From: Candidatus Eiseniibacteriota bacterium
Lineage (GTDB): Bacteria; Eisenbacteria; RBG-16-71-46
DNA length: 64,000 nt
NCBI GenBank assembly: GCA_963717505.1
Contig: OY970342.1
Coordinates: forward strand, 3,104,001 to 3,168,000
Reading direction: 5' to 3'
Positions 42,499 to 58,811 of this stretch are shown piece by piece. The notes under the pieces were generated by a model. It saw nothing but the letters and a program-made list of their open reading frames with translations. It was not told where the DNA came from and made no database searches. A program made the position numbers and the translations under genes. How positions within the stretch are numbered: position 1 is the first letter of the stretch; the number at the start of each line of letters is the position of its first letter.

Positions 42499-43596
42499 CT
42501 AGTGGTGTCGCTCGAGTCGAACTTCGTACTCGCTGGAGCCGCCCGGGAAGTCGTAGTAGATGTCGTGTCCGGGGACCCGGAGCCACTCCGGTCGCACCCA
42601 GCGGTCGGCGGCCAGGTCCTCGATCCGGGCCGGATAGGTCCCGTGCTCGAGACGGTAGAGATCGAGCGCGTAGCGCAGGTCTCTCAGCTGTGCGGCGACG
42701 AACACGTCGTCGGCCGAGATCGCGGTTGCGCGCCGGAGCCCGAAGCCGATCAGGGCCAGGATCATGATGCCCAGGGCCATGACTCCGGTCACGGCCATCT
42801 CGCTGGCGAACGACCGCTGAACCGGCCGACGCACGGGAACCACGGTCGGGGCGACCCGGACCTCGGCCTGCTCCGGCTCCGGGCCGACATCGCGTCGCCC
42901 GACGACCTCGACCCATTCCATCCTCATGAGGCGATCGATGGCTTCCAGCGTCTCGTAACGCGTGAGCGGAACCTGGGCGACGATCTCGTCGAGGGTCGTG
43001 CGCCCGTCGATCAGGCCGAACAGGTCGCGCTCTTCGTCGGTGAGTGGCTCGGTCGGGTCGGGGAGATCGCGAACGCCCAGGAGCAGCTGCGAGTCGTTGA
43101 GCTGTTCGCCGAAACGCTGCTGCTCGTCGATCCGGCGCGCCGCCTCGATCAGGGCGCCCTCGACTGCGATTTGGACCCGCGCCGGCTGCTCCCAGATCCG
43201 GCGCGATTCGAAGCGATAGGTGCCATCGGTCCACGGCACCGCGAGCGTCACGCGATCGAGGATCTGGCGGTGCAGCAGGTTCTCGAAGTCCTCGGCGTCG
43301 ACGTAGCGTCCGTTGACCAGGATGTCCTCGAGGTCGCGACCGGTCTCCTGCTGCAGCGTCTCGATGCCGCGTCGCTGGTCGGCGGACAGCCGCTGGACCT
43401 TGATCAGGAACTCGAGCAGCGGGTCGCCCGGAGCGAGGCCCGGATCGCGGGTCGAGACGATGCGGCCATCGATCACGTAGATGAGCACGCGCTGCTGGCC
43501 GCGCTCGAGGATCAGGCAGCCGCTCTTCTGCTGCGTGCCGAGCAGCTGGAGGATCTCGCTGGTCGAGAAGTCCGACAGGCTGCCTTGGAGTGCCAT
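42499..43596 (-). CDS. DUF4388 (PatA_N-like) protein with a TM helix and a pseudopilin-like C-terminal domain
   Basis: Starts MALQGSLSDFSTSEILQLLGTQQKSGCL; has WTDGTYRF, IEAARRIDE, LIDGRTTLDEI, a TM helix, then ALDLYRLEHGTYP. SD GAGG upstream. Confidence 0.85.
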   Translation of the reverse strand: MALQGSLSDFSTSEILQLLGTQQKSGCLILERGQQRVLIYVIDGRIVSTRDPGLAPGDPLLEFLIKVQRLSADQRRGIETLQQETGRDLEDILVNGRYVDAEDFENLLHRQILDRVTLAVPWTDGTYRFESRRIWEQPARVQIAVEGALIEAARRIDEQQRFGEQLNDSQLLLGVRDLPDPTEPLTDEERDLFGLIDGRTTLDEIVAQVPLTRYETLEAIDRLMRMEWVEVVGRRDVGPEPEQAEVRVAPTVVPVRRPVQRSFASEMAVTGVMALGIMILALIGFGLRRATAISADDVFVAAQLRDLRYALDLYRLEHGTYPARIEDLAADRWVRPEWLRVPGHDIYYDFPGGSSEYEVRLERHH

Positions 43597-43604
43597 GGAG
43601 CCTC

Positions 43605-45653
43605 TCATGCGGCCTGCCCGACCGAACGCGATGGCCGCGAGCGACGCACCGCCTCCAGGCTTCGCTCGATTTCAGCCCGTTCCCGCCGGGCTTCGCCGAA
43701 GTATCCGAGAATCGACAACGCATAGACCCCGGCCCACGGCAACACGAGCAGCATGAGGCCGGCGCTGCCATGCGGGTACTGGATCCGGGGCTCGTACGAG
43801 AACGGCATGGCGACTCCGGCGGCGAACGTGGCCAGTGCCGCGGTCGCGATCCACAGGCCGAGTGCCCGGAACGTCCGGCGATGGAGGATCAGGCCCAGGC
43901 CGGGGACGGTGGCGGCGAGGGCCGCGCGCCAAACGCGGCGGCGCCGCTGCAGATCGCGCTGCCGGTCGAGCAGCAGGACCTGGATGAACTCGGACGAACC
44001 GGACCGCGATGCCGCCTCGAAGCACTCGCGGCACAGCGGAATCTCGCGGCGGCGCCGCGCGCAGCGGCGGCAGATGACGCGCTGGCAATTGCCGCACAGC
44101 CTCACCGGCATCTTGCGATGGGCCACGAATCCGACCGCGAAGCCGGAGATCGCCGTGACCACGGCCAGGATGCTGAACGGCCACCCGGAGCACTCGATGC
44201 GCGTGCGCCACGCGGGCGGGATCGCGAGCAGTGCGCCCTGCGGGGCCCGATAGCCTTCGAGTGCGGCGCGCAGGCGCATCGGCGCCAGCCAGACGTCGGC
44301 CGGCATCATCGCCTGGCGCGAGCGAAGTGCCCCCGGGTTCATGAGCTCGAAGTCGAGGGCGGTGGCCCGAGCCATCGCTTCCTCGGCCGCCGCGAATTCA
44401 TATCGGTCGGTCAACAGCCGGGCGCGGTTGTAGTGGGGGGCGCCGCTCATCGGATTCGATTGCGAGGCACGAGTCAGCGCATCGAGTGCCTCGTCCGATC
44501 GTCCGAGCAGGCCGAGGACGTTCCCCAGGTTGTTGAGCACGCGATCATCATCGGGCCATGCGGCGAGGGCCTGACGATAGGCCGCTTCGGCACCTTCGAG
44601 ATCGCCGCCCCGCCTCAGCACCCAACCCTGGGCGAAGTGGACGAAGCCGTTGTCGGGGTTGGAGTCGGCCGCCTGGGTGAGGCGAGCCGCAAGCTGCGGC
44701 GAATAGGGTTCGTTCTGCACTCGCAGCACGCCGAACAATGGCTCTCGATCTTCGCGCAGCGGGCTGCCGAGCCGATCGAATTCGCGGATGCACCAGGGCA
44801 TGGCGCCCAGCGATACCGCGAGCAGGATGAACACCGTTCGCTCGCCCCAGCGCAACAGCGGCCACAGCAATCCGAGGAACGCGATCGCCGGCAGGGCGGG
44901 TCCGAGCCCGAGTGCGAAGGGAACGCAGAACACCACCCAGGACCAGAAGATGGCACTGCGCCGGGAGACGCGCTCCGCGAGCATCTCCTGCCAGCGATGG
45001 CGAAGCTCCTGGCCGCGGACCAATGCGATCAGCAGCGCGGTCGCGATCAAACCGAGCAGGACCGCCTGCAGGAACGCGAACAGGCTGTTGGCTTTGAGCG
45101 CGAGCTGAACCGAGAAACTCTGACGCGCGATGTCGACCATCGAGCCAAAATGGGCGATGGCTGGGCCCGGTTCGCGCAGGAGCATCCACATGCCGAGCGT
45201 CATACGCGGATCGATGAACGTCGGGTCGAGCGCGGCGGCGCCGCGTACCAGACGCAACGCTTCGTCGTGCGAGCCCGCCTGTTGGGCCATGATCCCGCGG
45301 CGATAGAAGATGCGCGCCGCGTCGGGGAGCGCCGGGAGCTGCATGCGCTGTTTGTAGTCCAGCCATTCGTCGAGATCGTGGAGTTGCGGGGGCGGGGTCG
45401 GATCGGGAGGAATCCACGCGACCAGAGACTCGGCGGGCGCCGGCATGGCCTCGGTGGGGGTCTCGACCTCGGTGGGTGCACCGTCTGGTGTTACGAATGA
45501 GATTCCGGTGTCGGGTGGGGCGGATTCGGCGCGTGCGTGCGAGATGCCCACCAGGCAGACGAACGCCGCGGAAAGCCCCAAAACGGCGGATCGGGACGCG
45601 AATGCGGCCGAGCTCCGCGCGCGGGTGCGCCTGGTTTTCCGGAATGGGTACAC
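43605..45653 (-). CDS. Polytopic membrane protein with TPR repeats and a Cys-rich zinc finger
   Basis: Signal peptide, TPR motifs ([16 protein letters not shown]), about 8 TM segments, CGNC-x4-CRRC-x9-CREC. Confidence 0.8.
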
Positions 45654-45668
45654 GAGAAGTGCAACCCC

Positions 45669-45698
45669 TTGACAGTGCGTGCGCTACGCTTCTAGGGT
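45669..45698 (+). promoter_or_regulatory. Putative sigma70 promoter TTGACA-N18-TAGGGT for asnS
   Basis: In the divergent intergenic region. Confidence 0.6.
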
Positions 45699-45790
45699 GC
45701 GGTGTTTCCCATTCCGTTATCGGCTCGCGGACGCAGCGCCTGAGCAGCGTTTTCCGGCCGATCTTGCGGCCTCGGAGGGCCTTCTCGAGC

Positions 45791-47104
<1,314 letters not shown>

Positions 47105-47148
47105 ACGCCGCGCGATTCGGCGATGCCGACTGGGAACCTTGCAAGCGC

Positions 47149-47177
47149 TTGACAGCACCGGAGCCGGTCCCTACCGT
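47149..47177 (+). promoter_or_regulatory. Putative sigma70 promoter P1, TTGACA-N17-TACCGT
   Basis: Read directly upstream of GTG 47223. Confidence 0.6.
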
Positions 47178-47222
47178 CGTCGGACTTCTGTGGCCAGCGA
47201 ACCGGACCGGAGCGGGAGCGGG

Positions 47223-48218
47223 GTGATTGACAGCACGCGATCGGGGTTTCTAGACTCGACTCGCTTCGTTTTCCGGGAAGCCATTGGGCATCTTGGCGTT
47301 GGGGCATGTGGCGTTGCCGCGCTCTGCCTCGTCGGCTGTGCTCCCGAGCCGACCCCGCGTCCCGTGGAAGACTCGATCACCAGCGGGCGTATTCGTGTCG
47401 TGTCCGCAGCAGAGGCGTTCGACGTCGTGCAACGGGTGGCGGAGGACTTCATGAGCCGTTATCCCGAGGCCATGATTTCCGTGGATCGCAGGACCTCCAG
47501 ACAGGCAGTTCAGGCACTGTTCGCAGCGGAATGCGATCTGGCGATCCTGAGCCGCGAGTTGGACCCGGACGAACGGCGCGCGGCGACGGAGGGTGGGCTG
47601 GAAGTGGAAGGGTACCGATTCGCCCGGGGCGGGCTGGTGTTTCTGGTTCACGAAACCAACCCGGTTCAGAATCTGGCTCTCGAAGATGTGCGGCGCATCT
47701 ACCGTGGTGAATGGCGGGACTGGCAGGAGACCGGGGGGGGCCGGGGCCGAATCGTACCGGTGATCCAGGAGTTGAATTCCGACGTGACCGAGGCCTTTCT
47801 CGAGCGGGTGATGATGGGCGAGCCGATTCGCGCGGCGGTGCGGACCGTGCCGTCGGACTCGGCGGCGGTGGCGGCCGTGCAGGCGGATGCCGGCGCGATC
47901 GCATTCGTGGGTCTTGCTGCACCGCGAGGCACCACTCGGGCGCTCCGCCTGGCGAACCTGCGAGGACTGCCCTACGTGTTGCCCGATCCCGAAGCGATCC
48001 ACGGCGACCAGTACCCGCTGAGCCTCGCGTTCTACGCCTACACTCGGGCCGAAGGCGCTCGGCTGGCGAATGGCTTCATCACGCACCTGACCAGCATGGA
48101 GGGGCAGCGCCTGGTTCGGGACCTGGCGCTGGTGCCGGCCAATGTTCCGGTGCGTTTCGTGCGTCGCTCCCCCATGCTGAGCACTCATTCGAGAGGAGAC
48201 TCGACAAACACGCCATGA
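47223..48218 (+). CDS. PstS-like (PBP_like_2) substrate-binding lipoprotein
   Basis: Lipobox LVG/C, LAILSRELD, FLVHETNPVQNL...VRRIYRGE..DW, YPL, GFITHLTSMEGQRLV. Start at GTG 47223 after GGAG is uncertain. Confidence 0.8.
   Translation: MIDSTRSGFLDSTRFVFREAIGHLGVGACGVAALCLVGCAPEPTPRPVEDSITSGRIRVVSAAEAFDVVQRVAEDFMSRYPEAMISVDRRTSRQAVQALFAAECDLAILSRELDPDERRAATEGGLEVEGYRFARGGLVFLVHETNPVQNLALEDVRRIYRGEWRDWQETGGGRGRIVPVIQELNSDVTEAFLERVMMGEPIRAAVRTVPSDSAAVAAVQADAGAIAFVGLAAPRGTTRALRLANLRGLPYVLPDPEAIHGDQYPLSLAFYAYTRAEGARLANGFITHLTSMEGQRLVRDLALVPANVPVRFVRRSPMLSTHSRGDSTNTP
47227..47256 (+). promoter_or_regulatory. Putative sigma70 promoter P2, TTGACA-N18-TAGACT
   Basis: Shares TTGACAGCAC with P1, 78 bp downstream. 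Confidence 0.6.
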
Positions 48219-49993
48219 AGAACCTGAACGGCATTCGACGAATCTCGCGCCTCGGCGCGGTCGCATGCGTGCTGGCCGTGGCCGTGACGCCCGTCGCCTG
48301 GGCGGACGACATCAAGGACGGCAACCGCGCCCTGCAGGAGGGGCGGCTGGACGATGCGTTGCAGCTATTCGAGAAGGCCGCGAATCAGGGGCTGGCCGAA
48401 GGGCGTTCCGGAGTGGGCAAGGTCTGGCTGCGGAGGCGCCAGTATCCCAAGGCGATCGAATCCTTCAAGCTGACCCAGAAGATGGATCCCAATCTGGCGT
48501 GGGGATACTACGGGGAAGGCGAGGCGCTCAAGCGCCTGGAGCGCTGCCCGGATGCGTTGCCGCTGCTCCAGCGCGCCACCGACATCGACCGCAAGTTCCC
48601 CGAGGCGCAGCTGGCGCTGGGCGAGTGCCTGGTGTCCGCCGGAAAGCACACCCAGGCGGTCGAGGCGCTGAACAAAGGCCTCAACTGGGGCCCGAAATGG
48701 CGGCCGCGATTCCTGGTCGCCCTGGGCGATGCCGAACTGGCGCGCGACTCGCTGCGCGACGCCGGCATCTGGTACACGAAGGCGCGCGAGGAAGCGCCCG
48801 AGGATCCGGCACCCCGGCGCGCGCTCGGCGACTTCTACATGGCGCGCGGCACCTTTGTTTTGGCGGTGCCCGAATACCAGGCGGCGATCGAGAAGGACAG
48901 CACCGACATCGACCTCCGATTCCGGCTCGGCCGGGCGCTGTTCTACGCCGAGCGCTACAACGAAGCGCTCGCCGCCTACCAGGATGTCGTGGCCCGGGAC
49001 CCCGAGTTCGCTCCCGGTCAGCTGGCGCTCGGCGACCTCTATTTCCGCTCCGCACAGGCCGACCCGCGCCGCTATGCGGACGCTCGGCCCTACCTCGAGA
49101 AGTACGTCCAGATGCGGCCGGACGATGGCAAAGGGTGGAGTCTGCTGGGTCGCGTCCTCTACCACCTCAAGGAGACCGACAAGGCGCTGGAAGCCATGAA
49201 TCGGGGCGAGGCGCTCGGTGACAAGTCAAAGGACATGTACCGGTCGCGGTTCCGTGTCTACGTGGACAAGAAGGAGTACGACAAGGCGATCGCGGACTAC
49301 GAGCGGGCCGACCCGGAGCCGGACGACCAGCTGCGCATGGCCCAGGTGCTGGTCATCCAGAAGCAGCCGGCCCGTGCGGAGTCGCTGTACCGGTCGATGA
49401 TCGCGACCGATTCGACCTCGCGCCACGCGAAATTCGCCCTCAACGAGCTGGGCAAGATGAGGTTTCGCGAGAAGGACTACGAAGGGGCGATCGCCTACTT
49501 CCAGCGACGAATCGCGCTTGACCCCCAGAACGACGAGGCTTACTACTATATAGGCTTGTCACACAAAGAGATGAAGCGATACCCGGAGGCATTGACCGCC
49601 CTGCGTCAGGCATCGAGCCTGGCGCCGGACAAGGTGGACCGGCGCTTCTGGCTCGGAATCATGTACGCGCAGGTGGACTCGATTCCGCAGGCGCGGCGGG
49701 AGTTCATCCAGGTCACGCAACAGGATTCGCTCGGGAGCAACAAGACCACCGGCGTCGCGTTCCGGCAACTGGGGTTCTACCTCTTGCTCGACAAGGAATA
49801 CGCGGAGGCGGTGCGAATGCTGGATCGGGCGGTCACCATCGATCCCAAGGACGTGCAGGCGTGGGTCTGGCACGGCCAGGGCTGGCAGAATTCGGGGAAC
49901 CGTGCCAAGGCCTGTGAGTCGTACAAACGCGCGCTCGAACTGGATCCGGCCCAGCCGGACGCATTGAACGGCAAGAAGGTGCTCGGCTGTTAG
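48215..49993 (+). CDS. Exported multi-TPR protein of about 590 aa
   Basis: ATG overlaps the upstream stop; signal peptide ending AWA/DD; continuous TPR-like repeats to the C-terminus. Confidence 0.9.
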   Translation: MKNLNGIRRISRLGAVACVLAVAVTPVAWADDIKDGNRALQEGRLDDALQLFEKAANQGLAEGRSGVGKVWLRRRQYPKAIESFKLTQKMDPNLAWGYYGEGEALKRLERCPDALPLLQRATDIDRKFPEAQLALGECLVSAGKHTQAVEALNKGLNWGPKWRPRFLVALGDAELARDSLRDAGIWYTKAREEAPEDPAPRRALGDFYMARGTFVLAVPEYQAAIEKDSTDIDLRFRLGRALFYAERYNEALAAYQDVVARDPEFAPGQLALGDLYFRSAQADPRRYADARPYLEKYVQMRPDDGKGWSLLGRVLYHLKETDKALEAMNRGEALGDKSKDMYRSRFRVYVDKKEYDKAIADYERADPEPDDQLRMAQVLVIQKQPARAESLYRSMIATDSTSRHAKFALNELGKMRFREKDYEGAIAYFQRRIALDPQNDEAYYYIGLSHKEMKRYPEALTALRQASSLAPDKVDRRFWLGIMYAQVDSIPQARREFIQVTQQDSLGSNKTTGVAFRQLGFYLLLDKEYAEAVRMLDRAVTIDPKDVQAWVWHGQGWQNSGNRAKACESYKRALELDPAQPDALNGKKVLGC

Positions 49994-50015
49994 CCGGGGG
50001 GAAGAGGACGCCACT

Positions 50016-50363
50016 ATGAAGCAACGCCAGGTGGGCAACATCGCCGTGCTGACCCCCAAGGGGTATCTGGCCGGCGGCGACGAGACCGACGAACTCGAAC
50101 AGGCGATCAAGGCGCTCGGCGAGGGCGGCAACCGGAATCTCGTGATCAACCTGAGCGAAACGCAGCACCTGAACTCGACCGCGCTCGGCGTGCTCATCTC
50201 GGCGCACTCGAACTACGTCAAGCGCGGCGGACAGGTGAAATTGTGCAACGTCGACAAGCGGATCGAGAACATCTTCGTGATCACCAAGCTGTCGATGGTG
50301 TTCGACGTCTATCCGACGGAAGAGCAGGCGATGGCCAGTTTCGCCGAGCGCGAGTCGGTCTGA
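50016..50363 (+). CDS. STAS domain protein (anti-sigma-factor antagonist-like) 1
   Basis: PKGYL.GGDETDEL, VINLS...LNSTALGVL, KLC, IFVITKL..VFDVY.TEEQA. Confidence 0.9.
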   Translation: MKQRQVGNIAVLTPKGYLAGGDETDELEQAIKALGEGGNRNLVINLSETQHLNSTALGVLISAHSNYVKRGGQVKLCNVDKRIENIFVITKLSMVFDVYPTEEQAMASFAERESV

Positions 50364-50392
50364 CGGTCCCTCAGGAAACGGAGACAGGCGCA

Positions 50393-50734
50393 ATGGCGAT
50401 TCGACGCCGGCAGGTGCAGTCGATCGTGGTGCTGTACCCGAAGGGCAGCTACTTCGGGGGCGACGAAACCGATGAGCTGCAAAAGGCCATCATGGACGAG
50501 GCGACCGGCGGCAACCGGCACCTGGTGCTGAACATGTCGGAGTGCACCGCGCTCAATTCGACCGCGATCGGGGCGATCATGCGCGGGTACACGAACTACA
50601 AGGGCCGATCGGGGGAAATCAAGTTGTGCGGCTTGGGCAAGCGGCTGCACGACCTATTCGTCATGACCAAGTTGATCATGGTGTTCGATCATCACGACAC
50701 GGAGGAGCAGGCGATCGCGGCTTTTGCCGCGTGA
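50393..50734 (+). CDS. STAS domain protein (anti-sigma-factor antagonist-like) 2
   Basis: PKGSYFGGDETDEL, VLNMS...LNSTAIGAI, LFVMTKLIMVFD..DTEEQA; paralog of the preceding gene. Confidence 0.9.
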   Translation: MAIRRRQVQSIVVLYPKGSYFGGDETDELQKAIMDEATGGNRHLVLNMSECTALNSTAIGAIMRGYTNYKGRSGEIKLCGLGKRLHDLFVMTKLIMVFDHHDTEEQAIAAFAA

Positions 50735-50790
50735 CCATGACCCCCGGCTCCGCGTGACCCGCGGCCCGGGATCAGGAGGAACTTAGGAAC

Positions 50791-51531
50791 ATGAATCGTT
50801 TCATCGTCCCCATCGGCTTCGTGCTTGCGGCGGTCATCTCGTTCGCCATCTGGTTCAATCTGCCGGCTCTAGGTGATTTCGGCGAGCAGATGTTCCAAGG
50901 CGGACCCCTGGTCGCGGCGCTCATCATGCTGACCATCCTGCAGACGTCGTTCATCTTCGAGCGCCTGTGGAGCCTGCGCAAAGCGCAGGGCCGCGGACCG
51001 CTGCCGCAGTTCCTCAACAACGTCCGTAAGCGCCTCCACGCCGGCGACGTCGAAGGCGCGATCAAGGCGTGTGCGCAGCAGCGCGGTTCCGCGGCCAACG
51101 TGATTCGCGCCGGCCTCGAACGCTACATGTCGCTGCGTGCCGAAGGTGCCCCGAAGGAGAAGATCGTGGCCGAAACCCAGGCCGCGATTCAGGAGGCCAA
51201 CGGCCTGGAAGTGCCGCTGCTCGAGCGCAACCTGATCGCTCTGTCGACCATCGCTTCGATCGCCACCATGGTCGGTCTGCTCGGAACGGTCATCGGGATG
51301 ATCCGTTCGTTCGCCGCCCTGGGCCACACCGGCGCCGTCGACGCGAGCAAGTTGGCGATCGGTATCTCCGAGGCGCTGATCAACACCGCCGGCGGATTGT
51401 TCGTGGCGATCGCCGGCATCGTCGCCTACAACGTGTTCGTGACCCGGGTCGACGGCTTCAACTACATGATGGACGAGGCCTCGTACGAAGCCGTGCAGCT
51501 GCTGGCGGCGTCGGCGTCCGAGCGCGGCTAA
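50791..51531 (+). CDS. exbB: MotA/TolQ/ExbB proton channel protein
   Basis: QGG, IFERL, LSTIASIATMVGLLGTVIGMI, GISEALINTAGG; strong SD AGGAGG. Confidence 0.93.
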   Translation: MNRFIVPIGFVLAAVISFAIWFNLPALGDFGEQMFQGGPLVAALIMLTILQTSFIFERLWSLRKAQGRGPLPQFLNNVRKRLHAGDVEGAIKACAQQRGSAANVIRAGLERYMSLRAEGAPKEKIVAETQAAIQEANGLEVPLLERNLIALSTIASIATMVGLLGTVIGMIRSFAALGHTGAVDASKLAIGISEALINTAGGLFVAIAGIVAYNVFVTRVDGFNYMMDEASYEAVQLLAASASERG

Positions 51532-51543
51532 GGGAGCCGGGAA

Positions 51544-52035
51544 ATGCTCAAGAAGAAACGCCGCATCGGGATCGCGATCGACATGACGCCGATGGTCGAT
51601 GTCGCGTTCCTGTTGCTCATCTTCTTCATGTGCACGACGCAGTTCAAGCCACCGGAGAAGGACAAGATCACGCTGCCAGAGTCGAACTCCGAGGCGAAAT
51701 CACCCGAGTCGGACATCATCACGATCGCGGTCACCCCGCGAAAGCCGGAATATGGCAACCAGTCCGGGGTGACGGTGATCTACCGCCGGGGCGGGGAGGA
51801 AGTCCATCAGGCGATCGCCGCCGACCAGGTGCGCGACGTCATGGCCAGCGTGCTGTCCACGGCGCGGGCGTCGAATCCTGCGGCGCGAATCATCGTCAAG
51901 ATGGACAAGGACGCGCCGTATGGGGTGATGGCGGACCTGATGCCGGCCCTGCAGGCGGCCAAGGCATCGCGTTTCAACGTGCAGACGGACCTCGAAGGCA
52001 AAGGCGGCATGTTCGGCGCCAAGCCGGAGCACTGA
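51544..52035 (+). CDS. exbD: ExbD/TolR family protein 1
   Basis: IDMTPMVDVAFLLLIFFM (essential Asp present), KMDKDAPYG. Confidence 0.92.
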   Translation: MLKKKRRIGIAIDMTPMVDVAFLLLIFFMCTTQFKPPEKDKITLPESNSEAKSPESDIITIAVTPRKPEYGNQSGVTVIYRRGGEEVHQAIAADQVRDVMASVLSTARASNPAARIIVKMDKDAPYGVMADLMPALQAAKASRFNVQTDLEGKGGMFGAKPEH

Positions 52036-52056
52036 ACAGCGAGGAGGTGAGCAGTC

Positions 52057-52557
52057 ATGGGGATGGTCGACACCCCCGATCGCGGCGGTAAGAAGAAAAA
52101 GGGCAGAGGGTTTTCGCGCCCCAAGCGCAGGGTGGGCGTCCGCATCGACATGACGCCGATGGTCGACGTGGCGTTCCTGCTGCTCATCTTCTTCATGGTA
52201 ACCACGGTGTTTCGCACGCCTCAGGCGCTCGAGATCAACTTGCCGCCGGATGAGGACGTCAAGATCGAGGTCGCAGAGTCCAAGGTGCTGAGTCTGTGGG
52301 TGCTCGGCGCGGATCGCATCTACTGGAAGCGCGGGGGCAAGGACGTGCCCTGGGCGCGCACGGATGCCAAGACGCTGCCCAAGGTTCTGGCGCCCTTCAA
52401 GGGCAACAAGGACCTGGTGGTCGTGATCAAGATCGATCGCGACGCCAGCTTCAACAACATGGTGGACATCATCGACGAACTCGATCTCGCGAGCCTCAAT
52501 CGATTCTCCCTGGCGACCCTGACCCCGGAAGAGCGTGGGGAGGTGGCTTCTCTGTGA
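52057..52557 (+). CDS. exbD: ExbD/TolR family protein 2
   Basis: IDMTPMVDVAFLLLIFFM, KIDRDASFNNMVDIIDEL. Confidence 0.92.
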   Translation: MGMVDTPDRGGKKKKGRGFSRPKRRVGVRIDMTPMVDVAFLLLIFFMVTTVFRTPQALEINLPPDEDVKIEVAESKVLSLWVLGADRIYWKRGGKDVPWARTDAKTLPKVLAPFKGNKDLVVVIKIDRDASFNNMVDIIDELDLASLNRFSLATLTPEERGEVASL

Positions 52558-53264
52558 GTGCTCGCGGCTGGCTGTTCTACTTCATGCCCTACGGGGCACC
52601 CGAGCTCAAAGAGGTCGGGCGGAAGTACATGGTGCGCGCGGTCCTGGTGGCGTCGGCCGCGTGGATTCTCTTGTTCCTGATGTCGCTCGGGACGAATGCG
52701 TTCCTGCGTAGCCGGCCGCGGGAGACCAGCGTGATCGTCGTTCCCTACCGCGAGATCGCAGCTCCGCCGCCGCTGACCCAGGATGCGCCGCCGCCGCAGG
52801 TGGCGATCGCGCAGCCGGTCGCGCCACCGACCGTGGGTGTCGCGGTCCCGGTGCCCGACGCCGAAGCGCCGCCCGAGCAGACGATTGCCTCGCAGGAGGA
52901 GATCGCGGCTTCGACGCCGGGCGTCGAGTCCACCGGGGACATCGTCGTGGCCCCGCCCTCCGAAGACGAGTTGCCGGCGTTCGGCGAGTACGTCTACGTC
53001 GAAGAGCTTCCGGAAGCGGTGACCAAGGTGAACCCGAGCTACCCGGACATCGCGCGTGAAGCCGGGGTCGACGGCGTCGTCCTGGTCCAGGCGTTGGTCG
53101 GCAAGGACGGCAAGGTCAAGGACACCCGCATCGTGAAATCGATCCCGATGCTCGACAATTCCGCGGCGGACGCAGTCAAGCAGTGGGTGTTCAAGCCGGC
53201 GCTGTCGAACAACAAGCCGGTTGCCGTGTGGGTGGCCGTGCCGGTGCGCTTCAGCCTCCACTAG
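52554..53264 (+). CDS. tonB: Energy transducer TonB
   Basis: YGAPELK, TM helix, Pro-rich linker, TonB_C (YPDIAREAGVDG...WVFKPA...PVRF). Confidence 0.92.
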   Translation: MSARGWLFYFMPYGAPELKEVGRKYMVRAVLVASAAWILLFLMSLGTNAFLRSRPRETSVIVVPYREIAAPPPLTQDAPPPQVAIAQPVAPPTVGVAVPVPDAEAPPEQTIASQEEIAASTPGVESTGDIVVAPPSEDELPAFGEYVYVEELPEAVTKVNPSYPDIAREAGVDGVVLVQALVGKDGKVKDTRIVKSIPMLDNSAADAVKQWVFKPALSNNKPVAVWVAVPVRFSLH

Positions 53265-53316
53265 AATCGCGCGGTTCCGCGCTCGGGGATGGAAATCCCG
53301 CGCCGGTCTGGCCGCG

Positions 53317-53346
53317 TTGACGCGTCTTCCCGCGTTTCCCTACCCT
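53317..53346 (+). promoter_or_regulatory. Putative sigma70 promoter TTGACG-N18-TACCCT for the Yip1 gene
   Basis: Intergenic, after short GC hairpins downstream of tonB. Confidence 0.55.
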
Positions 53347-53406
53347 CGGCGCGCGAGTGCCTGCAGCGTTCCGCGCGCTTGCACCCCGTCCATTGGAGGT
53401 TCCCCC

Positions 53407-54153
53407 GTGATTTCGCCCGAAGCTGCGGTTCCCCCGGCCGCTCCGCCGGAGTTGTCCCCATGGTCGCGGTTCGTCGCCGTCTTCGTCCGGCCGGCTTCCG
53501 CCTGGGGTGGGCTCGACAAACCTCAGTGGTGGTACCCGATGCTCGTGACTCTGGCGCTCAGTCTCGGTTCGGTGGCCGTGCTTCACGATCGCGCCCTGAT
53601 GCCGATGCTGATCAGCCAGTGGGAGGAGGCGGTTGACGAGGGACGCATGCCACCCGAGCAGCTCGAGCGCATGGAATCGTTCTTCTCCGATGGGGGTGGC
53701 CGGATCGTCAACCTGAGCACCCAGGCGGTCGCGATCCCGTTGATCCTGATCATCACCGCAATCCTGCTCAGCTTCATCTGCGGTTTCCTGCTGGGCCACA
53801 AGCTGTCCTTCCGGCTGGCGCTCGAGGTGGCCTGTTGGTCGTCATTGATCAGCATTCCGTCGATCGTCCTGACGACGGTGATCGCCTGGCAGCGCGAGAC
53901 CATGGAGGGCATTCACCTCGGCTTCGGGGCCCTGCTGTCCGGCGCCGAGCCCAGCCGGATGACCAGCGCGATCGCCAGCACGCTCGACGCGTTCGGCCCG
54001 CTGGCGCTGTGGCAGGTTGCCGTGATGATCCTGGGAGCGAGCACCCTGTCGGGCGCGCCACGGGCCAAGACCGCCTGGGCGGTCGGGGGCGTGTACCTGG
54101 TCGTGATCGCTGGACTTGGCGCGTTGGGCGCCGCATTCGGCCGCGCGGGCTGA
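53407..54153 (+). CDS. Yip1-family (YknW-like) membrane protein
   Basis: SRFVAVFVRPASAW, PQWWYP, about 5 TM helices; SD GGAGG before GTG 53407; upstream of tolC-macAB. Confidence 0.78.
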   Translation: MISPEAAVPPAAPPELSPWSRFVAVFVRPASAWGGLDKPQWWYPMLVTLALSLGSVAVLHDRALMPMLISQWEEAVDEGRMPPEQLERMESFFSDGGGRIVNLSTQAVAIPLILIITAILLSFICGFLLGHKLSFRLALEVACWSSLISIPSIVLTTVIAWQRETMEGIHLGFGALLSGAEPSRMTSAIASTLDAFGPLALWQVAVMILGASTLSGAPRAKTAWAVGGVYLVVIAGLGALGAAFGRAG

Positions 54154-54154
54154 T

Positions 54155-54180
54155 GGAAACCTTTCGAGACAAGGGCCGTA
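54155..54180 (+). promoter_or_regulatory. Putative ECF (sigmaW-like) promoter GGAAAC-N16-CGTA
   Basis: GGAAACCTTT...CGTA, about 50 nt before tolC ATG 54228; matches the TGAAAC-N16-CGTA consensus with one mismatch. Confidence 0.6.
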
Positions 54181-54227
54181 GTGCACGTGGTTCCACCGCC
54201 GGTCGGGGAACGTTTCATGGAGGATGC

Positions 54228-55565
54228 ATGAGCAGGAGTCATTGGACGCTGGCAGCAATGGTGGTGGTGCTGGCGACCGCGAGCGCGACCGCGGAAGCCC
54301 AGTTGTTGACCGTCGACCGAGCCGTCGAGATCGGTCGCGAACGCAGCTCGCTCACCGTGCAGGGCAAGGCCGGGGTGGTCGACGCCCAGGCGGGGCTCTA
54401 CGGCGCCTACTCGGGCATCCTGCCGCGCCTCTCCGCCGGCATCAGCCGCTCCGGGCAATGGACCGACAACCGCACCGGCAGCGAGCAGTTCGGCGGCGTC
54501 ACGCTGCCATCGGTCACGTTCGACGCCGAGGACTACTCGACCAACCCCGGGGTCACGGGCTCCTGGGCGATCCTCGATCTGGCGGCGATCTCGAACTTCT
54601 CGGCGGCGCGCAACAACCTCCGCGCCGCTCGGGACCGTGAGACCGCGACGCTCAACGATCTGACCTTCCAGGTGCGCGCCCAGTTCTACGAAGTCGTGCG
54701 CGCGGTCCAGCTGGCGCGGGTCAACGCCGAAGCCGTGCGTTTGGCGCGCGACGACGAGCGGCGCGTGCGCGCCCTGTTCGAGGTCGGTTCGGTGTCGAAG
54801 AGCGACCTGCTCGCCGCCCAGGTGCGAACCGCCCAAAGCGAGCTCGACTCGATCACCGCTCGGCACGCGATCACGACGACGCGGAACGACCTCGCGATCC
54901 TGATCGGTATGGAAGCGTCCGAGCTGGGCGAGGTCGACACGCTGCTGGCCTTCGCGCAGCAGACCTACGACGAAGCCGCGATTCTGGCCGAAGCCGAGCA
55001 GAATCGACCCGACATCATCGCGGCCGAGTCCGACATGACCGCGGCCGGAGCCGCGGTCAATGCCGCGCGATTCAATTACCTGCCCTACGTGACGGTCTCG
55101 GGGAGCGCCGCCTTCTCGCCCAAGTCCAGCTCGGCGCTGACCATCAATGACACGACGACCGTGAGTCGCAACGAAACCGACCAGGTTTTGCGCGGCACCG
55201 TGGCACTGAACTGGGACTTCTTCGATGGTCTGGCGGCCGAAGCGCAGCGGGCTCAGGCCAAGGCGCGGCAGATGCGGGCGCGAGACACGCGCGACGCACT
55301 GCGGCGCAACCTGGCGGCCGACGTGCGCGAGTCGCTGCTGCTCTACCAGGAGGCGACCGAAGCCCTGCGACTGGCCGAACGGGCCATGGAGTCGGCGGTC
55401 GAGAACAACAACCTGAACCAGCAGAAATACAACGTCGGCTCGTCGACGATTCTGGAGTTGATCAATGCGCAGGTGCAGCTGCAACAGGCCAGCAGCCAGA
55501 GGGTGACCGCATTGGCGGTGATCAAGGTCGCCGAAGCCCGCATCGAGCGGGTCCGCGGACGCTGA
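54228..55565 (+). CDS. tolC: TolC-family outer membrane efflux protein
   Basis: Signal peptide and two OEP repeats (LFEVGSVSKSDLLAAQ, KYNVGSSTILELINAQ). Confidence 0.92.
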   Translation: MSRSHWTLAAMVVVLATASATAEAQLLTVDRAVEIGRERSSLTVQGKAGVVDAQAGLYGAYSGILPRLSAGISRSGQWTDNRTGSEQFGGVTLPSVTFDAEDYSTNPGVTGSWAILDLAAISNFSAARNNLRAARDRETATLNDLTFQVRAQFYEVVRAVQLARVNAEAVRLARDDERRVRALFEVGSVSKSDLLAAQVRTAQSELDSITARHAITTTRNDLAILIGMEASELGEVDTLLAFAQQTYDEAAILAEAEQNRPDIIAAESDMTAAGAAVNAARFNYLPYVTVSGSAAFSPKSSSALTINDTTTVSRNETDQVLRGTVALNWDFFDGLAAEAQRAQAKARQMRARDTRDALRRNLAADVRESLLLYQEATEALRLAERAMESAVENNNLNQQKYNVGSSTILELINAQVQLQQASSQRVTALAVIKVAEARIERVRGR

Positions 55566-55598
55566 CGACCGCCGAGCTCGGGAAGGAGCACGCAGCGA

Positions 55599-56885
55599 AT
55601 GAAGCGCAAGTGGCTGTGGTTCGTCATTGGAGGCGTGGTCGTGCTCGCGCTGGTGGGGGTCAACGTCGTGCGCGGCGCCAAGGGGCGGGCCGAGTCCGTT
55701 CAGCTGGCGAAGGTGCGATCCGAGACCGTGACTTCGACGGTTCGCGCTCCGGGCAAGATCGAACCGCGCACCCAGGTCAAGGTCAGCGCTGACATCCCGG
55801 GGAAGATCGTGCGCCTGGCGGTCAAGGAAGGCGACACCGTACGCCGCGGCCAGCTCATGCTCCAGCTCGACGACACGCAGTACCGCGCCGCGCTCGAGCA
55901 GAGCCGCGCGGGTCTGGCGTCGGCGGAAGGCCGCCTGCGCGAGGCGACCACGGCGCTCAAGGTGTCGTCCTCGAACCTGACGCGCCAGAAAGCGCTCTAC
56001 GAGCAGAAGCTGCTGTCGGACGCCGAGTGGGACATCGCCATGCGCAATCACGAGTCCGCCGAGGTCGCGGTCAATACCGCGAACGAGGAAGTGGCTCGGA
56101 CCCGCGCGATGGTGACCGCCGCGGCGGACAACGTCAGCAAGATGCCGATTCCTGGCGCCGTTCGACGGTGTGGTCAGCGCGCTCAACGTCGAGGCCGGCG
56201 AGATCGTGATCACCGGGACCATGAACAATCCCGGCACCCAGATCCTCACGGTGTCCGACCTCTCGCGCATGCTGGTGCGCGCCGATGTCGACGAAACCGA
56301 CGTGGTCGACATGACCGTCGGCCAGAAGGCCAAGATCACGGTCGACGCGCTGCCCGACACGTCGTTCGGCGGCATGGTGCTCGAGATCGGCAACACCGCG
56401 AAGCGCTCGGCGACCTCGAGCATCGAGGGGCAGACCAACTTCGAAGTCAAAGTCGGCTTCGACGAGAACGTGCCCGCGATCCGGCCCGGGATGACGGCCG
56501 ACGTCGAGATCGAGACCGCGACCCGACGCGCAAGACGCTGGCGGTGCCGATCCAGGCGGTGGTGGTGCGCACCGACCGCGACCTGGAGCGTGCCGAGAAG
56601 CGCAAGAGCGGGGCGAAGAAGCCGCGCAAGGGGGACGCGATCGCCGCCGACGAGGACACGGTCGGACGCAAGGCCAAGGAGATCACCGGGGTCTTCGTGG
56701 TCAAGGACGGCGTGGCGACGTTCGTCCCGGTGCGCACCGGAATCGCGGGCGAGACGATGCTGGAGGTGTTCGGCGAGGTTCAGGCCGGCAACGAGATCGT
56801 CTCGGGACCCTACAAGGCGCTGCGCGACCTCAAGCCGGGCACCAAGGTCAAGGCCGAGACCGTGAAGCGCGCGGAGCGGCGCTGA
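55599..56885 (+). CDS. MacA-like periplasmic adaptor; middle section out of frame (indels near 56142 and 56531)
   Basis: Both ends are in ORF 55599. APFDGVVS, VDETD, VDALPD and IRPGMTA are in the +1 frame (ORF 56170). Confidence 0.88.
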   Translation: MKRKWLWFVIGGVVVLALVGVNVVRGAKGRAESVQLAKVRSETVTSTVRAPGKIEPRTQVKVSADIPGKIVRLAVKEGDTVRRGQLMLQLDDTQYRAALEQSRAGLASAEGRLREATTALKVSSSNLTRQKALYEQKLLSDAEWDIAMRNHESAEVAVNTANEEVARTRAMVTAAADNVSKMPIPGAVRRCGQRAQRRGRRDRDHRDHEQSRHPDPHGVRPLAHAGARRCRRNRRGRHDRRPEGQDHGRRAARHVVRRHGARDRQHREALGDLEHRGADQLRSQSRLRRERARDPARDDGRRRDRDRDPTRKTLAVPIQAVVVRTDRDLERAEKRKSGAKKPRKGDAIAADEDTVGRKAKEITGVFVVKDGVATFVPVRTGIAGETMLEVFGEVQAGNEIVSGPYKALRDLKPGTKVKAETVKRAERR

Positions 56886-57597
56886 TGCTGATCCAGCTCC
56901 GCGAGTTGCACGCGGATCTACGAGATGGGGGCGGAGAAGGTCCACGCCCTGGCCGGCGTCGACCTCGACATCGCCGAGAACGAGTACGTGGCGATCATGG
57001 GGCCGTCGGGCTCCGGGAAGTCGACGCTGATGAACATCATCGGCTGCCTCGATACGCCGTCGAGCGGCAGCTACAAGCTCAAGGACACCGAGATCGGCAA
57101 GCTGAGCGACGACGAGCTGGCGCGCATCCGCAATCAGGAGATCGGTTTCGTGTTCCAGACGTTCAACCTGCTGCCACGCGCCGACGCGCTGCACAACGTC
57201 GAGCTGCCCCTGGTCTACGCCGGGCGTCAAGCACGAGGAGCGGCGCAAGCGCGCGCGCGAGGCCCTGGAGCTGGTCGGCCTCGGCGACCGCATGAAGCAC
57301 CGGCCCAACGAGCTGTCGGGCGGGCAGCGCCAGCGCGTGGCGATCGCCCGCGCGCTGGTCAACCGGCCGAGCATCATCCTGGCCGACGAACCGACCGGGA
57401 ATCTCGACTCCTCGACCGGCGAGGAGATCATGGCGTCCTTCGCGCGCATCTGGAGCCAGGGCAACACGGTCATCCTGGTGACCCACGAGGCCGACATCGC
57501 GGCGCATGCCCGCCGCGTGGTGCGCATGCGCGACGGCAAGATCGAGAGCGACGTGTCCAGTACCTCGAGCACCGTCCCCGCGGCGCCGGCGTCGTGA
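56885..57597 (+). CDS. MacB-type ABC ATPase; split by two +1 indels (near 56909 and 57223)
   Basis: MLIQLREL, then GPSGSGKST and [10 protein letters not shown], then [13 protein letters not shown] and DEPTGNLD, in three successive frames. Confidence 0.9.
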
Positions 57598-58811
57598 ACC
57601 TCCGCGAGAGCGCCGGCATCGCCCTGGGTGCGATCCGGGCCAACAAGCTGCGCTCGTTCCTGACGCTGCTCGGCACCATCATCGGCGTCGCGTCGGTGAT
57701 CGCCGTGGTCTCGTTCGTCGAAGGCCTGAACCGCTTCGTCGCCGACAAGGTGCTCCAGGCCGGCTCGAACGTCTTCTACGTCGACAAATGGGGCTTCATC
57801 ACCAGCCAGGAAGCCTGGGAGGAGGCGCAGAAGCGCCCCGACGTCACGATCGACGACGCCGACGCGCTGCGTCGCGGAGTCAGCCACGCGGCCCTGGTGG
57901 TCGCGATGGCCGATCAGCGCGAGACGGTTCGTTACCGCACCAAGACGCATGAACGGCGTCAGCGTCTCCGGTCGCAGCGCGGATACGAGATCATCGACGA
58001 TCTGACCATCGCCGACGGGCGGCATCTGAGCGATCTCGACGATCGCCGCCGGCGGATGGTGTGCGTCATCGGTCCGGAGATCGCGGAAGAGCTGTTCCCG
58101 GGTCTCGATCCCATGGGCCGGGTGATCCGGGTCGGCGCCCAGTCGTTCCAGGTGATCGGCGTGACGCAGAAGAAGGGCAAGCTGCTCGGCCAGAACCGCG
58201 ATCGCTTCGTCGCGATCCCGATCCGAACGTTCGTCAAACACAAGCAGGAGCGGGCGTCGGTGACCGTGGCGATCAAGAGTGTCGACCAGGCCACGCTGCC
58301 GACGGCACAGCACGAAGCGCGCAACGTGCTGCGCGGCCGGCGTCACCTGGCGCCGGGGCGGCCCGACAACTTCGGCATCCAGACCTCCGAGACCTGGATG
58401 CAGTTCTACCACAACCTGACCGGCGGCATCTTCTTCGTGTCCATCGGCGTCGCCGCGATCTCGCTGGTGGTCGGCGGCATCGTGATCATGAACATCATGC
58501 TGGTCTCGGTGACCGAGCGGACGCGCGAGATCGGCGTGCGCAAGGCGCTGGGCGCGCGCCGGCGCGACATCCTGATCCAGTTCCTGATCGAGGCGACGAC
58601 CTTGTCGCTGGCCGGGGGCATCAGCGGCATCGTGCTCGGCGGAGGGCTGGCGCTGCTGGTCGGCGCCGTGAGCCCGCTGCCGGCGGCAATCAGCATGCCG
58701 GCGGTGATCATGGGCATCTTCATGTCGTGCGGGATCGGATTGTTCTTCGGCTCGTACCCGGCCTGGCGCGCCGCGCGCCTCGATCCCATCGAAGCGCTGC
58801 GCTACGAGTAG
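57594..58811 (+). CDS. MacB/FtsX-type ABC permease 1
   Basis: [57 protein letters not shown]; a short out-of-frame patch near 57948-57980. Confidence 0.92.

Follow-up and report, generated by a model that had tools for sequence, protein, structure and literature searches.

The usual view of Ton systems is that they energise transport constitutively and that transcription is the only level at which they are controlled, and we know of no cytoplasmic protein that has been described as a partner of ExbB or ExbD. Partner switches with outputs other than sigma factors include Bordetella BtrU/BtrV/BtrW, which acts on type III secretion, Pseudomonas HsbR/HsbA and Vibrio SypE/SypA, and none of these is known to us to work with a proton motor of the Ton, Tol or Mot type. 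A further STAS protein, MlaB, is a subunit of the MlaFEDB lipid transporter and binds its ABC ATPase. Here we describe a locus from a Candidatus Eisenbacteria metagenome-assembled genome (MAG) of an uncultured soil bacterium, which we read as a Ton system joined to a partner switch, each of a known kind. The window analysed is a stretch of 64,000 nucleotides (positions 3104001-3168000 of a single 4.16-Mb contig, GC 0.63-0.73), and the operon in question lies at 47149-53264 within it. On balance we favour the view that the locus is a housekeeping Ton energiser of the FCB type, to which a partner switch based on Ser phosphorylation is coupled. Full-text literature searches returned no paper on a pairing of STAS and Ton proteins, only transcriptome papers that mention both separately. 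For the motor genes taken together with pstS and TPR genes the literature yielded an unrelated genome paper, and for TonB in Eisenbacteria passing mentions.

Among described systems the motor genes are matched by a Bacteroidota locus. In P. gingivalis a seven-gene locus with two ExbD proteins holds an essential TonB, which falls into one group with TonB3 of B. fragilis and TonB4 of B. thetaiotaomicron, two proteins that the authors tie to SusC/D transport (10.1101/2025.11.18.689179, section 26), and in R. anatipestifer a PstS-like gene lies next downstream of tonB2 (PMC4446302). The exbB-exbD-exbD-tonB block of Bacteroidota, which the original prediction for this window had named, is therefore in print. 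In the sections of these papers that deal with them, the loci of TonB3, TonB4, PG0785 and R. anatipestifer TonB2 share with ours one ExbB, two different ExbD proteins, a TonB and a PstS-family gene. In contrast, the PstS-like and TPR genes here stand first rather than last, and one or two STAS genes lie immediately 5' of exbB, whereas the same sections describe the printed loci without STAS.

With the RsbV-RsbW and SpoIIAA-SpoIIAB switches the locus has in common a single-domain STAS protein with a phosphorylatable Ser and a link, seen in gene neighbourhoods, to a small kinase of the HATPase_c_2 family and to PP2C phosphatases. Unlike those switches it shows no sigma factor in any cassette seen, its STAS genes are embedded in a membrane-motor operon, and the kinase is encoded 1.46 Mb away from that operon. 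The likeness to BtrUVW, HsbR/HsbA and SypE/SypA is that the output of the STAS phospho-switch would be a cellular machine or an enzyme and not a sigma factor.

Searches with Pfam and NCBIfam found all eight predicted genes on the + strand, closely packed and with the domains expected of them:

47223..48218, + strand: PstS-fold (PBP_like_2) lipoprotein; PF12849, E 1.9e-28; lipobox LVGC, with the Cys codon at 47337-47339; phosphate site degenerate; start codon uncertain
48215..49993, + strand: exported TPR-repeat protein of 592 amino acids; many TPR families, best E 3.9e-48; hydrophobic, signal-like N-terminal segment
50016..50363, + strand: STAS1, single-domain, cytoplasmic, RsbV/SpoIIAA type; PF01740, E 1.4e-14; TIGR00377; invariant Ser54
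50393..50734, + strand: STAS2, tandem and faster-evolving paralogue with the Ser retained; PF01740, E 2.5e-10
50791..51531, + strand: ExbB, proton-channel subunit of the MotA/TolQ/ExbB family; PF01618, E 4.1e-29
51544..52035, + strand: ExbD1; PF02472, E 1.6e-24; Asp in the membrane segment
52057..52557, + strand: ExbD2, with a longer, basic N-terminal cytoplasmic tail; PF02472, E 2e-24
52554..53264, + strand: TonB, with membrane anchor, Pro-rich linker and TonB_C; PF03544, E 2e-23; SYPD (YP motif) present

Calculated from these coordinates, the successive intergenic gaps from the PstS-like gene to tonB are -4, 22, 29, 56, 12, 21 and -4 nucleotides. STAS1 and STAS2 are 54.5% identical to one another, and ExbD1 and ExbD2 35%. 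ExbB shares 52-88% identity with 61 aligned orthologues; it falls under the cut-offs of both equivalog models, exbB and tolQ, and its best NCBIfam match is TolQ. Both ExbD proteins carry the membrane-segment Asp in the motif PMVDVAFLLL, and we take this residue to be the equivalent of Asp25 of E. coli ExbD. Judged by its sequence the operon has each of the Ton-system features that we looked for, namely the ExbB channel family, the ExbD membrane Asp, and a TonB with anchor, linker and a TonB_C domain containing the YP motif.

The linkage of STAS to exbB is a feature that sets this operon apart from the printed loci, and we followed it through the phylum. An orthologue of STAS1 was found in 147 of 151 sampled Eisenbacteria genomes (E 1e-10; the tally includes the unpublished G015). 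Three of the four genomes without a STAS match were searched for an ExbB orthologue and none has one (E 1e-30). Because ExbB is also absent from all three, the missing STAS points to assembly gaps rather than to loss of STAS alone. The STAS gene lies immediately 5' of exbB in 17 of 20 loci drawn from eight families, within the order PBP-TPR-STAS(-STAS)-ExbB-ExbD-ExbD-TonB, the exceptions being one locus with STAS after tonB (L050) and two with STAS elsewhere (L046 in G062 and L047 in G107). A collection-wide scan with the STAS alignment, from which 80 loci out of 192 confirmed relatives were kept, placed STAS immediately 5' of exbB in 74 loci and after tonB in one; two loci are cut off by a contig edge and three have no ExbB. 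Two STAS matches were present in 43 of these 80. Recurrence in both samples shows that the gene arrangement is far beyond chance. Furthermore, we judge STAS1 to be as conserved as ExbB, since the mean column identity is 72% for STAS1 (63 sequences) and 73% for ExbB (62 sequences, mostly from the same loci).

Loci labelled Saccharimonadaceae, Limnocylindria, Usitatibacter, Binatia, Verrucomicrobiia and Acidobacteriota, which are Eisenbacteria-like in gene content and GC, were not tallied as further phyla, and neither was the Komeilibacteria-labelled L077, which has a GC of 0.46 and lacks ExbB. Contigs with unrelated phylum labels carry an operon or a STAS gene of Eisenbacteria-like kind in L077, L110, L111, L120, L129, L135 and L136, and these odd labels are likely due to mis-binning or mislabelling. 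In six loci of one family (L042, L043, L045, L124, L125 and L134) a second ExbB-ExbD-ExbD-TonB module stands in tandem with the first, without a STAS of its own.

Outside the phylum we started from five loci, with the labels Ignavibacteria, Bacteroidota, Latescibacterota and Krumholzibacteriia plus one more. In the phylum of G151 a Ton-type STAS was found in 34 of 301 sampled genomes (E 1e-30), and it lies immediately 5' of exbB in each of the 30 loci retrieved, across GC contents of 0.28-0.60. The phylum of G155 gave a match in 5 of 20 genomes, each with the order TPR-STAS-ExbB (5/5), and that of G153 in 39 of 101, with TPR-STAS-ExbB in 5 of the 15 loci inspected. A TPR gene upstream of STAS is thus a feature of Eisenbacteria and of the phyla of G153 and G155, while at least one locus in the phylum of G151 (L084) has the STAS-exbB pair with neither TPR nor PBP upstream. 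The domain content of the representative loci L084, L101, L107 and L131 was confirmed with Pfam, and a MAG labelled Bacteroidota (L121) reads STAS-ExbB-ExbD-ExbD-TonB-PBP. Hence the pairing of STAS with exbB is old and spans at least four GTDB phyla. The concern that the STAS genes might not be syntenic in relatives is not borne out, given their position immediately 5' of exbB in 17/20, 74/80, 30/30 and 5/5 loci. In the original prediction the Bacteroidota block was said to have no STAS genes; this holds for most of that phylum, but not for the 34 of 301 sampled genomes that carry a Ton-type STAS.

STAS1 passes the TIGR00377 model (55.7 bits, cut-off 53.45), STAS2 falls under it (41.7 bits), and STAS1 aligns to RsbV (6m36) and SpoIIAA (1th8, 1auz) through the phospho-Ser motif. 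The residue aligned to the phospho-Ser of these proteins, Ser54, is invariant in 17/17 and in 63/63 aligned sequences, and it is also retained in STAS2, which forms a long branch in the STAS tree. No HATPase_c_2 match, and hence no kinase of this type, lies inside the window. In two families, however, represented by the genomes G062 and G107 (L139 and L140), the Ton block is intact with no STAS between the TPR gene and exbB, and the sole Ton-type STAS gene adjoins a small HATPase_c_2 (RsbW-like) kinase. The same pair of STAS and RsbW-like kinase occurs in L123, and in L085 a GAF-SpoIIE (PP2C) phosphatase lies directly 5' of STAS. These relocated STAS proteins nest among the Ton-linked STAS proteins of their own lineage in a maximum-likelihood tree, in which the Eisenbacteria group has a support of 83/94 and the kinase-cassette STAS proteins of the G153 phylum form a separate clade.

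The best match of those kinases in the present genome is an orphan gene for 147 amino acids at 1696048-1696491 (G000:C1; L141:2048-2491), with 40-44% identity, so that a candidate cognate kinase exists whose orthologue adjoins the Ton-type STAS in G062, G107 and L123. Orthologues of this kinase are present in 144 of the 151 genomes of the phylum. Its surroundings here are dksA..rluD-kinase-ruvX-mltG, and the matching neighbourhood in G153 (L208) is dksA-lspA-rluD-STAS-kinase-GAF/SpoIIE-ruvX-mltG. Since Eisenbacteria have kept the kinase while the cassette STAS is gone, the STAS of the Ton operon would be its obvious, if putative, substrate. In L141 (this genome) and L208 (the G153 cassette) alike, the genes beside the kinase include none for a sigma factor, although a distant target is possible. 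By these comparisons the operon's STAS resembles an RsbV-type antagonist in being a single STAS domain with the conserved phosphorylatable Ser, but its presumed circuit shows no sigma factor beside the kinase. The genome has six STAS genes, three of which adjoin a kinase or a kinase-phosphatase fusion, together with 15 SpoIIE-type matches and several RsbW-like kinases. Of the proposed coupling of the operon to a phospho-switch through STAS, it is the link to an RsbW-like kinase and PP2C that gene context supports.

A third Ton-type STAS paralogue is encoded at G000:C1:1139324-1140139 (L001:8325-8816, - strand), directly after groES-groEL and before a metallophosphoesterase, and is 45-46% identical to STAS1 and STAS2. 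We considered a conserved groESL-STAS pair and dropped it, as none of seven secondary STAS loci in other genomes lies near GroEL and one lies with a metallophosphoesterase.

What is observed is which genes the locus holds, how well they are conserved, that the Ser is kept, and that STAS is tied to the kinase by gene context; from this we propose the following model. The ExbB channel with a mixed ExbD1/ExbD2 pair would convert the proton motive force into movement of TonB, which would then open TonB-dependent transporters encoded elsewhere in the genome, as knowledge of the family and the Bacteroidota homologue suggest. The PstS-fold lipoprotein, with its phosphate site gone, and the exported TPR protein would be envelope accessory proteins of the unit; taking YbgF/CpoB, the TPR protein of Tol-Pal, as an analogue, they may form a periplasmic scaffold. 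The one or two STAS proteins would most likely be substrates and antagonists of the conserved RsbW-like Ser kinase at 1696048-1696491 and of PP2C phosphatases. Coupling could then take one of two forms: STAS, unphosphorylated or phosphorylated, would bind the cytoplasmic face of ExbB/ExbD and gate the motor, or expression of the operon would feed STAS into the kinase circuit.

The argument for a functional coupling of motor and partner switch is that the Ser is invariant, that STAS is linked to a conserved kinase and to PP2C, and that its gene has a fixed place 5' of exbB. That STAS is phosphorylated, that it touches the motor and which way control runs are parts of the model that we infer. 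As to the form of coupling, the strict adjacency across four phyla and the ExbB-like conservation lean towards STAS acting on the cytoplasmic face of the motor, whereas the groES-groEL paralogue and the lack of a STAS-ExbB fusion lean towards STAS merely reporting expression of the operon to the kinase circuit. In its most specific form, which we put forward tentatively and would not yet bet on, STAS would be a phospho-regulated clutch or brake that docks with the ExbB pentamer from the cytoplasmic side, or else with the basic tail at the N-terminus of ExbD2. A predicted 1:1 complex of ExbB and STAS1 had a score of 0.00, which gives no verdict and was counted neither for nor against binding.

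Several observations weigh against the coupled Ton energiser. Ten of the 15 loci inspected in the G153 phylum hold a different, non-Ton paralogue without ExbB nearby, and the group that unites all Ton-type STAS proteins is only modestly supported (88/71). Orthology with the Bacteroidota TonB3-type locus would be argued from gene content and one MAG (L121) rather than from a tree of the motor proteins. The paralogue behind groES-groEL is explained at least as readily by a regulator signalling that an operon is expressed as by a motor subunit. A search for fusions of STAS to ExbB found none, the one longer relative being a STAS-GAF-PAS protein of 280 amino acids on a 1-kb contig, though this is weak evidence. 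Finally, no TonB-dependent receptor lies in or beside the operon, and the other ExbB-ExbD-TonB clusters of the genome (L003 and L005) could serve the receptors instead.

Of the alternatives, the one that survives best is that STAS is a regulator at the level of transcription which rides in the operon, an anti-anti-sigma-type protein titrating the RsbW-like kinase when the Ton operon is expressed, without touching the motor. A sigma factor or another regulator partnered with the kinase would then be released. We regard this reading as rather unlikely. The RsbV/SpoIIAA type of the STAS protein with its phospho-Ser, its ties by gene context to an RsbW-like kinase and PP2C, and the failure to find a STAS-ExbB fusion all agree with it, and the paralogue after groES-groEL suggests that paralogues in different operons feed one circuit. 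However, neither the kinase of this genome nor that of the G153 cassette has a sigma-factor gene beside it, and the position beside groEL recurs in 0/7 secondary paralogue loci of other genomes. Moreover, the exact place of STAS 5' of exbB across four phyla, at GC contents of 28-72%, and a conservation like that of ExbB exceed what co-expression would need.

The remaining alternatives turn on the periplasmic genes of the operon and on what else the genome encodes. The PstS-like lipoprotein matches the fold family PF12849, but in the PstS subfamily model TIGR02136 it reaches 106.6 bits against a cut-off of 206.6. We aligned it to C. perfringens PstS (4gd5, 4q8r) and to the two PstS copies of the genome itself for a comparison of the phosphate site, and all four motifs common to the reference PstS proteins are altered. 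We took the motifs GSDT, GRE and SGT to correspond to the ligand numbering of E. coli PstS. As listed in the section of PMC6549937 that concerns them, the phosphate ligands of E. coli PstS are Thr10, Ser38, Asp56, Arg135 and Ser139-Gly140-Thr141. Among 63 Ton-linked orthologues the Thr of GSDT is retained in one and the Arg of GRE in two, and the residues of SGT in 34 (S), 15 (G) and two (T); the Ser of GGGS is kept in 57/63 and the Arg of ASR in 62/63. At former phosphate-site columns the family has conserved residues of its own (R 47/63, E 51/63, D 44/63).

The operon has no pstCAB, and pstC, pstA, pstB and phoU sit with two other pstS genes in a canonical porin-pstS-pstS-pstC-pstA-pstB-phoU cluster elsewhere in the genome, the pst/phoU genes lying at 1.169-1.174 Mb. 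Because the phosphate-site motifs are replaced by the family's own conserved residues, the lipoprotein is, as predicted from its sequence, not a phosphate carrier for the distant PstCAB. This removes the possibility, raised with the original prediction, that a full phosphate site is kept and serves a pstCAB elsewhere; the ligand motifs are lost, and the canonical pstSSCAB-phoU cluster has pstS genes of its own. The annotation 'PstS' in FCB-type Ton loci is accordingly misleading. At 48140-48218 of the window, and in the orthologues, there is a conserved extra C-terminal segment (VPVRFVRRSPML-like) that is missing from the canonical PstS copies of the genome, and this segment of the Ton-linked PstS-fold proteins may be a docking strand.

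The window was predicted to be free of receptor, Pst permease and kinase genes, and indeed no match to PF00593 (20 in the genome), HATPase_c_2 (21) or SpoIIE (15) falls inside 3104001-3168000; the other two of the genome's three PBP_like_2 matches also lie outside it. From this absence a dedicated envelope machine had been proposed, whose TonB would act on periplasmic partners from its own operon, the TPR protein and the PstS-like protein, in place of TonB-dependent transporters. We consider this improbable, and it found no support in the genome, where there are 20 matches to the receptor barrel. Since the barrels are encoded elsewhere, the lack of a receptor gene in the window carries no weight. 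The accompanying check for receptors and tolB-pal thus came out in two parts, the window having none and the genome having both the 20 barrels and a full tol-pal cluster. It is true that the PstS-like and TPR genes are members of the conserved block, that the PstS-like protein has the conserved site of its own described above, that the window has no receptor gene, and that the genome holds other ExbB-ExbD-TonB clusters. On the other side, the TonB of the operon is the best of the genome's nine TonB_C matches, and at least one locus of the G151 phylum (L084) lacks both TPR and PBP ahead of its STAS-exbB pair. In addition, the Bacteroidota locus of the same content is presented, in the section that treats it, as the TonB for receptor-dependent uptake (10.1101/2025.11.18.689179).

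The genome has five MotA/ExbB loci in all. Two of them are further ExbB-ExbD(-ExbD)-TonB clusters with very large TPR proteins, L003 (3.648-3.655 Mb) and L005 (2.496-2.505 Mb). The TPR proteins that head these clusters have 1048 amino acids in one case and 1576 plus 312 in the other, and one of the clusters also has a FlgD_ig protein.

With Tol-Pal and its YbgF/CpoB protein the operon shares a motor of the MotA/ExbB family and a periplasmic TPR protein. It differs in that the anchor protein has a TonB_C and not a TolA domain, the TolQ/TolR scores are far under the cut-offs, there is no TolA, TolB or Pal in the operon, and the genome has its own separate and complete canonical cluster, tolQ-tolR-tolA(TonB_2)-tolB(PD40)-pal(OmpA)-ybgF (L004). 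By these measures the operon is not a Tol-Pal system, nor is its lipoprotein a PstS by score, ligand residues or pstCAB linkage.

MlaB is the model for the last alternative, since it too is a small STAS protein encoded with an envelope transport machine and acting on it from the cytoplasmic side; the present machine differs in being driven by protons, with no ATPase, and its STAS in having an invariant phospho-Ser. That STAS is likewise a constitutive structural subunit, never phosphorylated, which stabilises or assembles the ExbB/ExbD complex is the least probable reading of all, for although its fixed place in a structural operon, its ExbB-like conservation and the MlaB precedent would suit it, the invariant phospho-Ser, the relocation of STAS beside a kinase or phosphatase in four loci and the conservation of the kinase across the phylum speak against it.

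Two promoter-like elements precede or overlap the start of the first gene:

47149..47177, + strand: promoter-like element P1; TTGACA, 17 nucleotides, TACCGT; in the spacer from asnS to the first gene; putative function
47227..47256, + strand: promoter-like element P2; TTGACA, 18 nucleotides, TAGACT; the sole sigma-70-like match in 45500-55000

Within 360 nucleotides around the start of the first gene, 59 of the 70 loci with an orthologous operon show the pattern TTGAC[AT]-N16-19-TAnnnT, 47 of them two or more times, compared to 0/70 coding controls of the same size, and the pattern is absent from the + strand of 47301-53300. A single pair ahead of the first gene and none inside the operon fits one predicted eight-gene transcription unit. 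P2 is kept at the DNA level in the orthologues, even at loci in which it stands ahead of the start codon, and therefore the apparent conserved N-terminal peptide would partly be a DNA signal. The start of the first gene is ambiguous (GTG at 47190, GTG at 47223 or further downstream) because the conserved P2 overlaps the candidate starts.

The upstream neighbour of the PstS-like gene is asnS, on the + strand. Still further upstream, at 42499-45653 on the - strand, are genes for a DUF4388 protein (369 amino acids) and a 682-amino-acid membrane protein with TPR repeats. Downstream of tonB lie genes for a Yip1/YknW-like membrane protein and a TolC-like protein and then MacA/MacB-like genes. This region, 53407-58811, begins with the Yip1 membrane protein (a weak YknW-family match), followed by the TolC-like, MacA-like and MacB-like genes, and resembles an export module of the YknWXYZ/MacAB type; such a putative module trails the Ton operon in most Eisenbacteria loci. 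We considered the Yip1 gene as a part of the Ton system, as it follows TonB in most of these loci, and assigned it instead to the export module on the grounds of its weak YknW match and its place ahead of the TolC/MacA/MacB-like genes. At 55599-58811 the macA-like and macB-like genes are each readable only via a one-base frame shift that is later shifted back; in macB the ABC signature and the Walker B region fall in the +1 frame, and in macA the central part does. The frame shifts, together with a completeness of 86.7% for a genome in one contig, suggest indel errors of the assembly and not real pseudogenes.

The presence of built-in switch proteins hints at a regulation of Ton motors that comes from the cytoplasm and uses phosphorylation. 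If STAS does act as a clutch, outer-membrane active transport would be switched post-translationally by a Ser kinase/phosphatase pair. STAS would then be the first regulator to act on a proton motor of the Ton type from the cytoplasm, and could be the partner long sought for the cytoplasmic domain of ExbB. Partner switching would thereby be extended to a new kind of output, and the locking of STAS to exbB, together with the kinase and phosphatase context, offers a testable handle on post-translational control of outer-membrane uptake.

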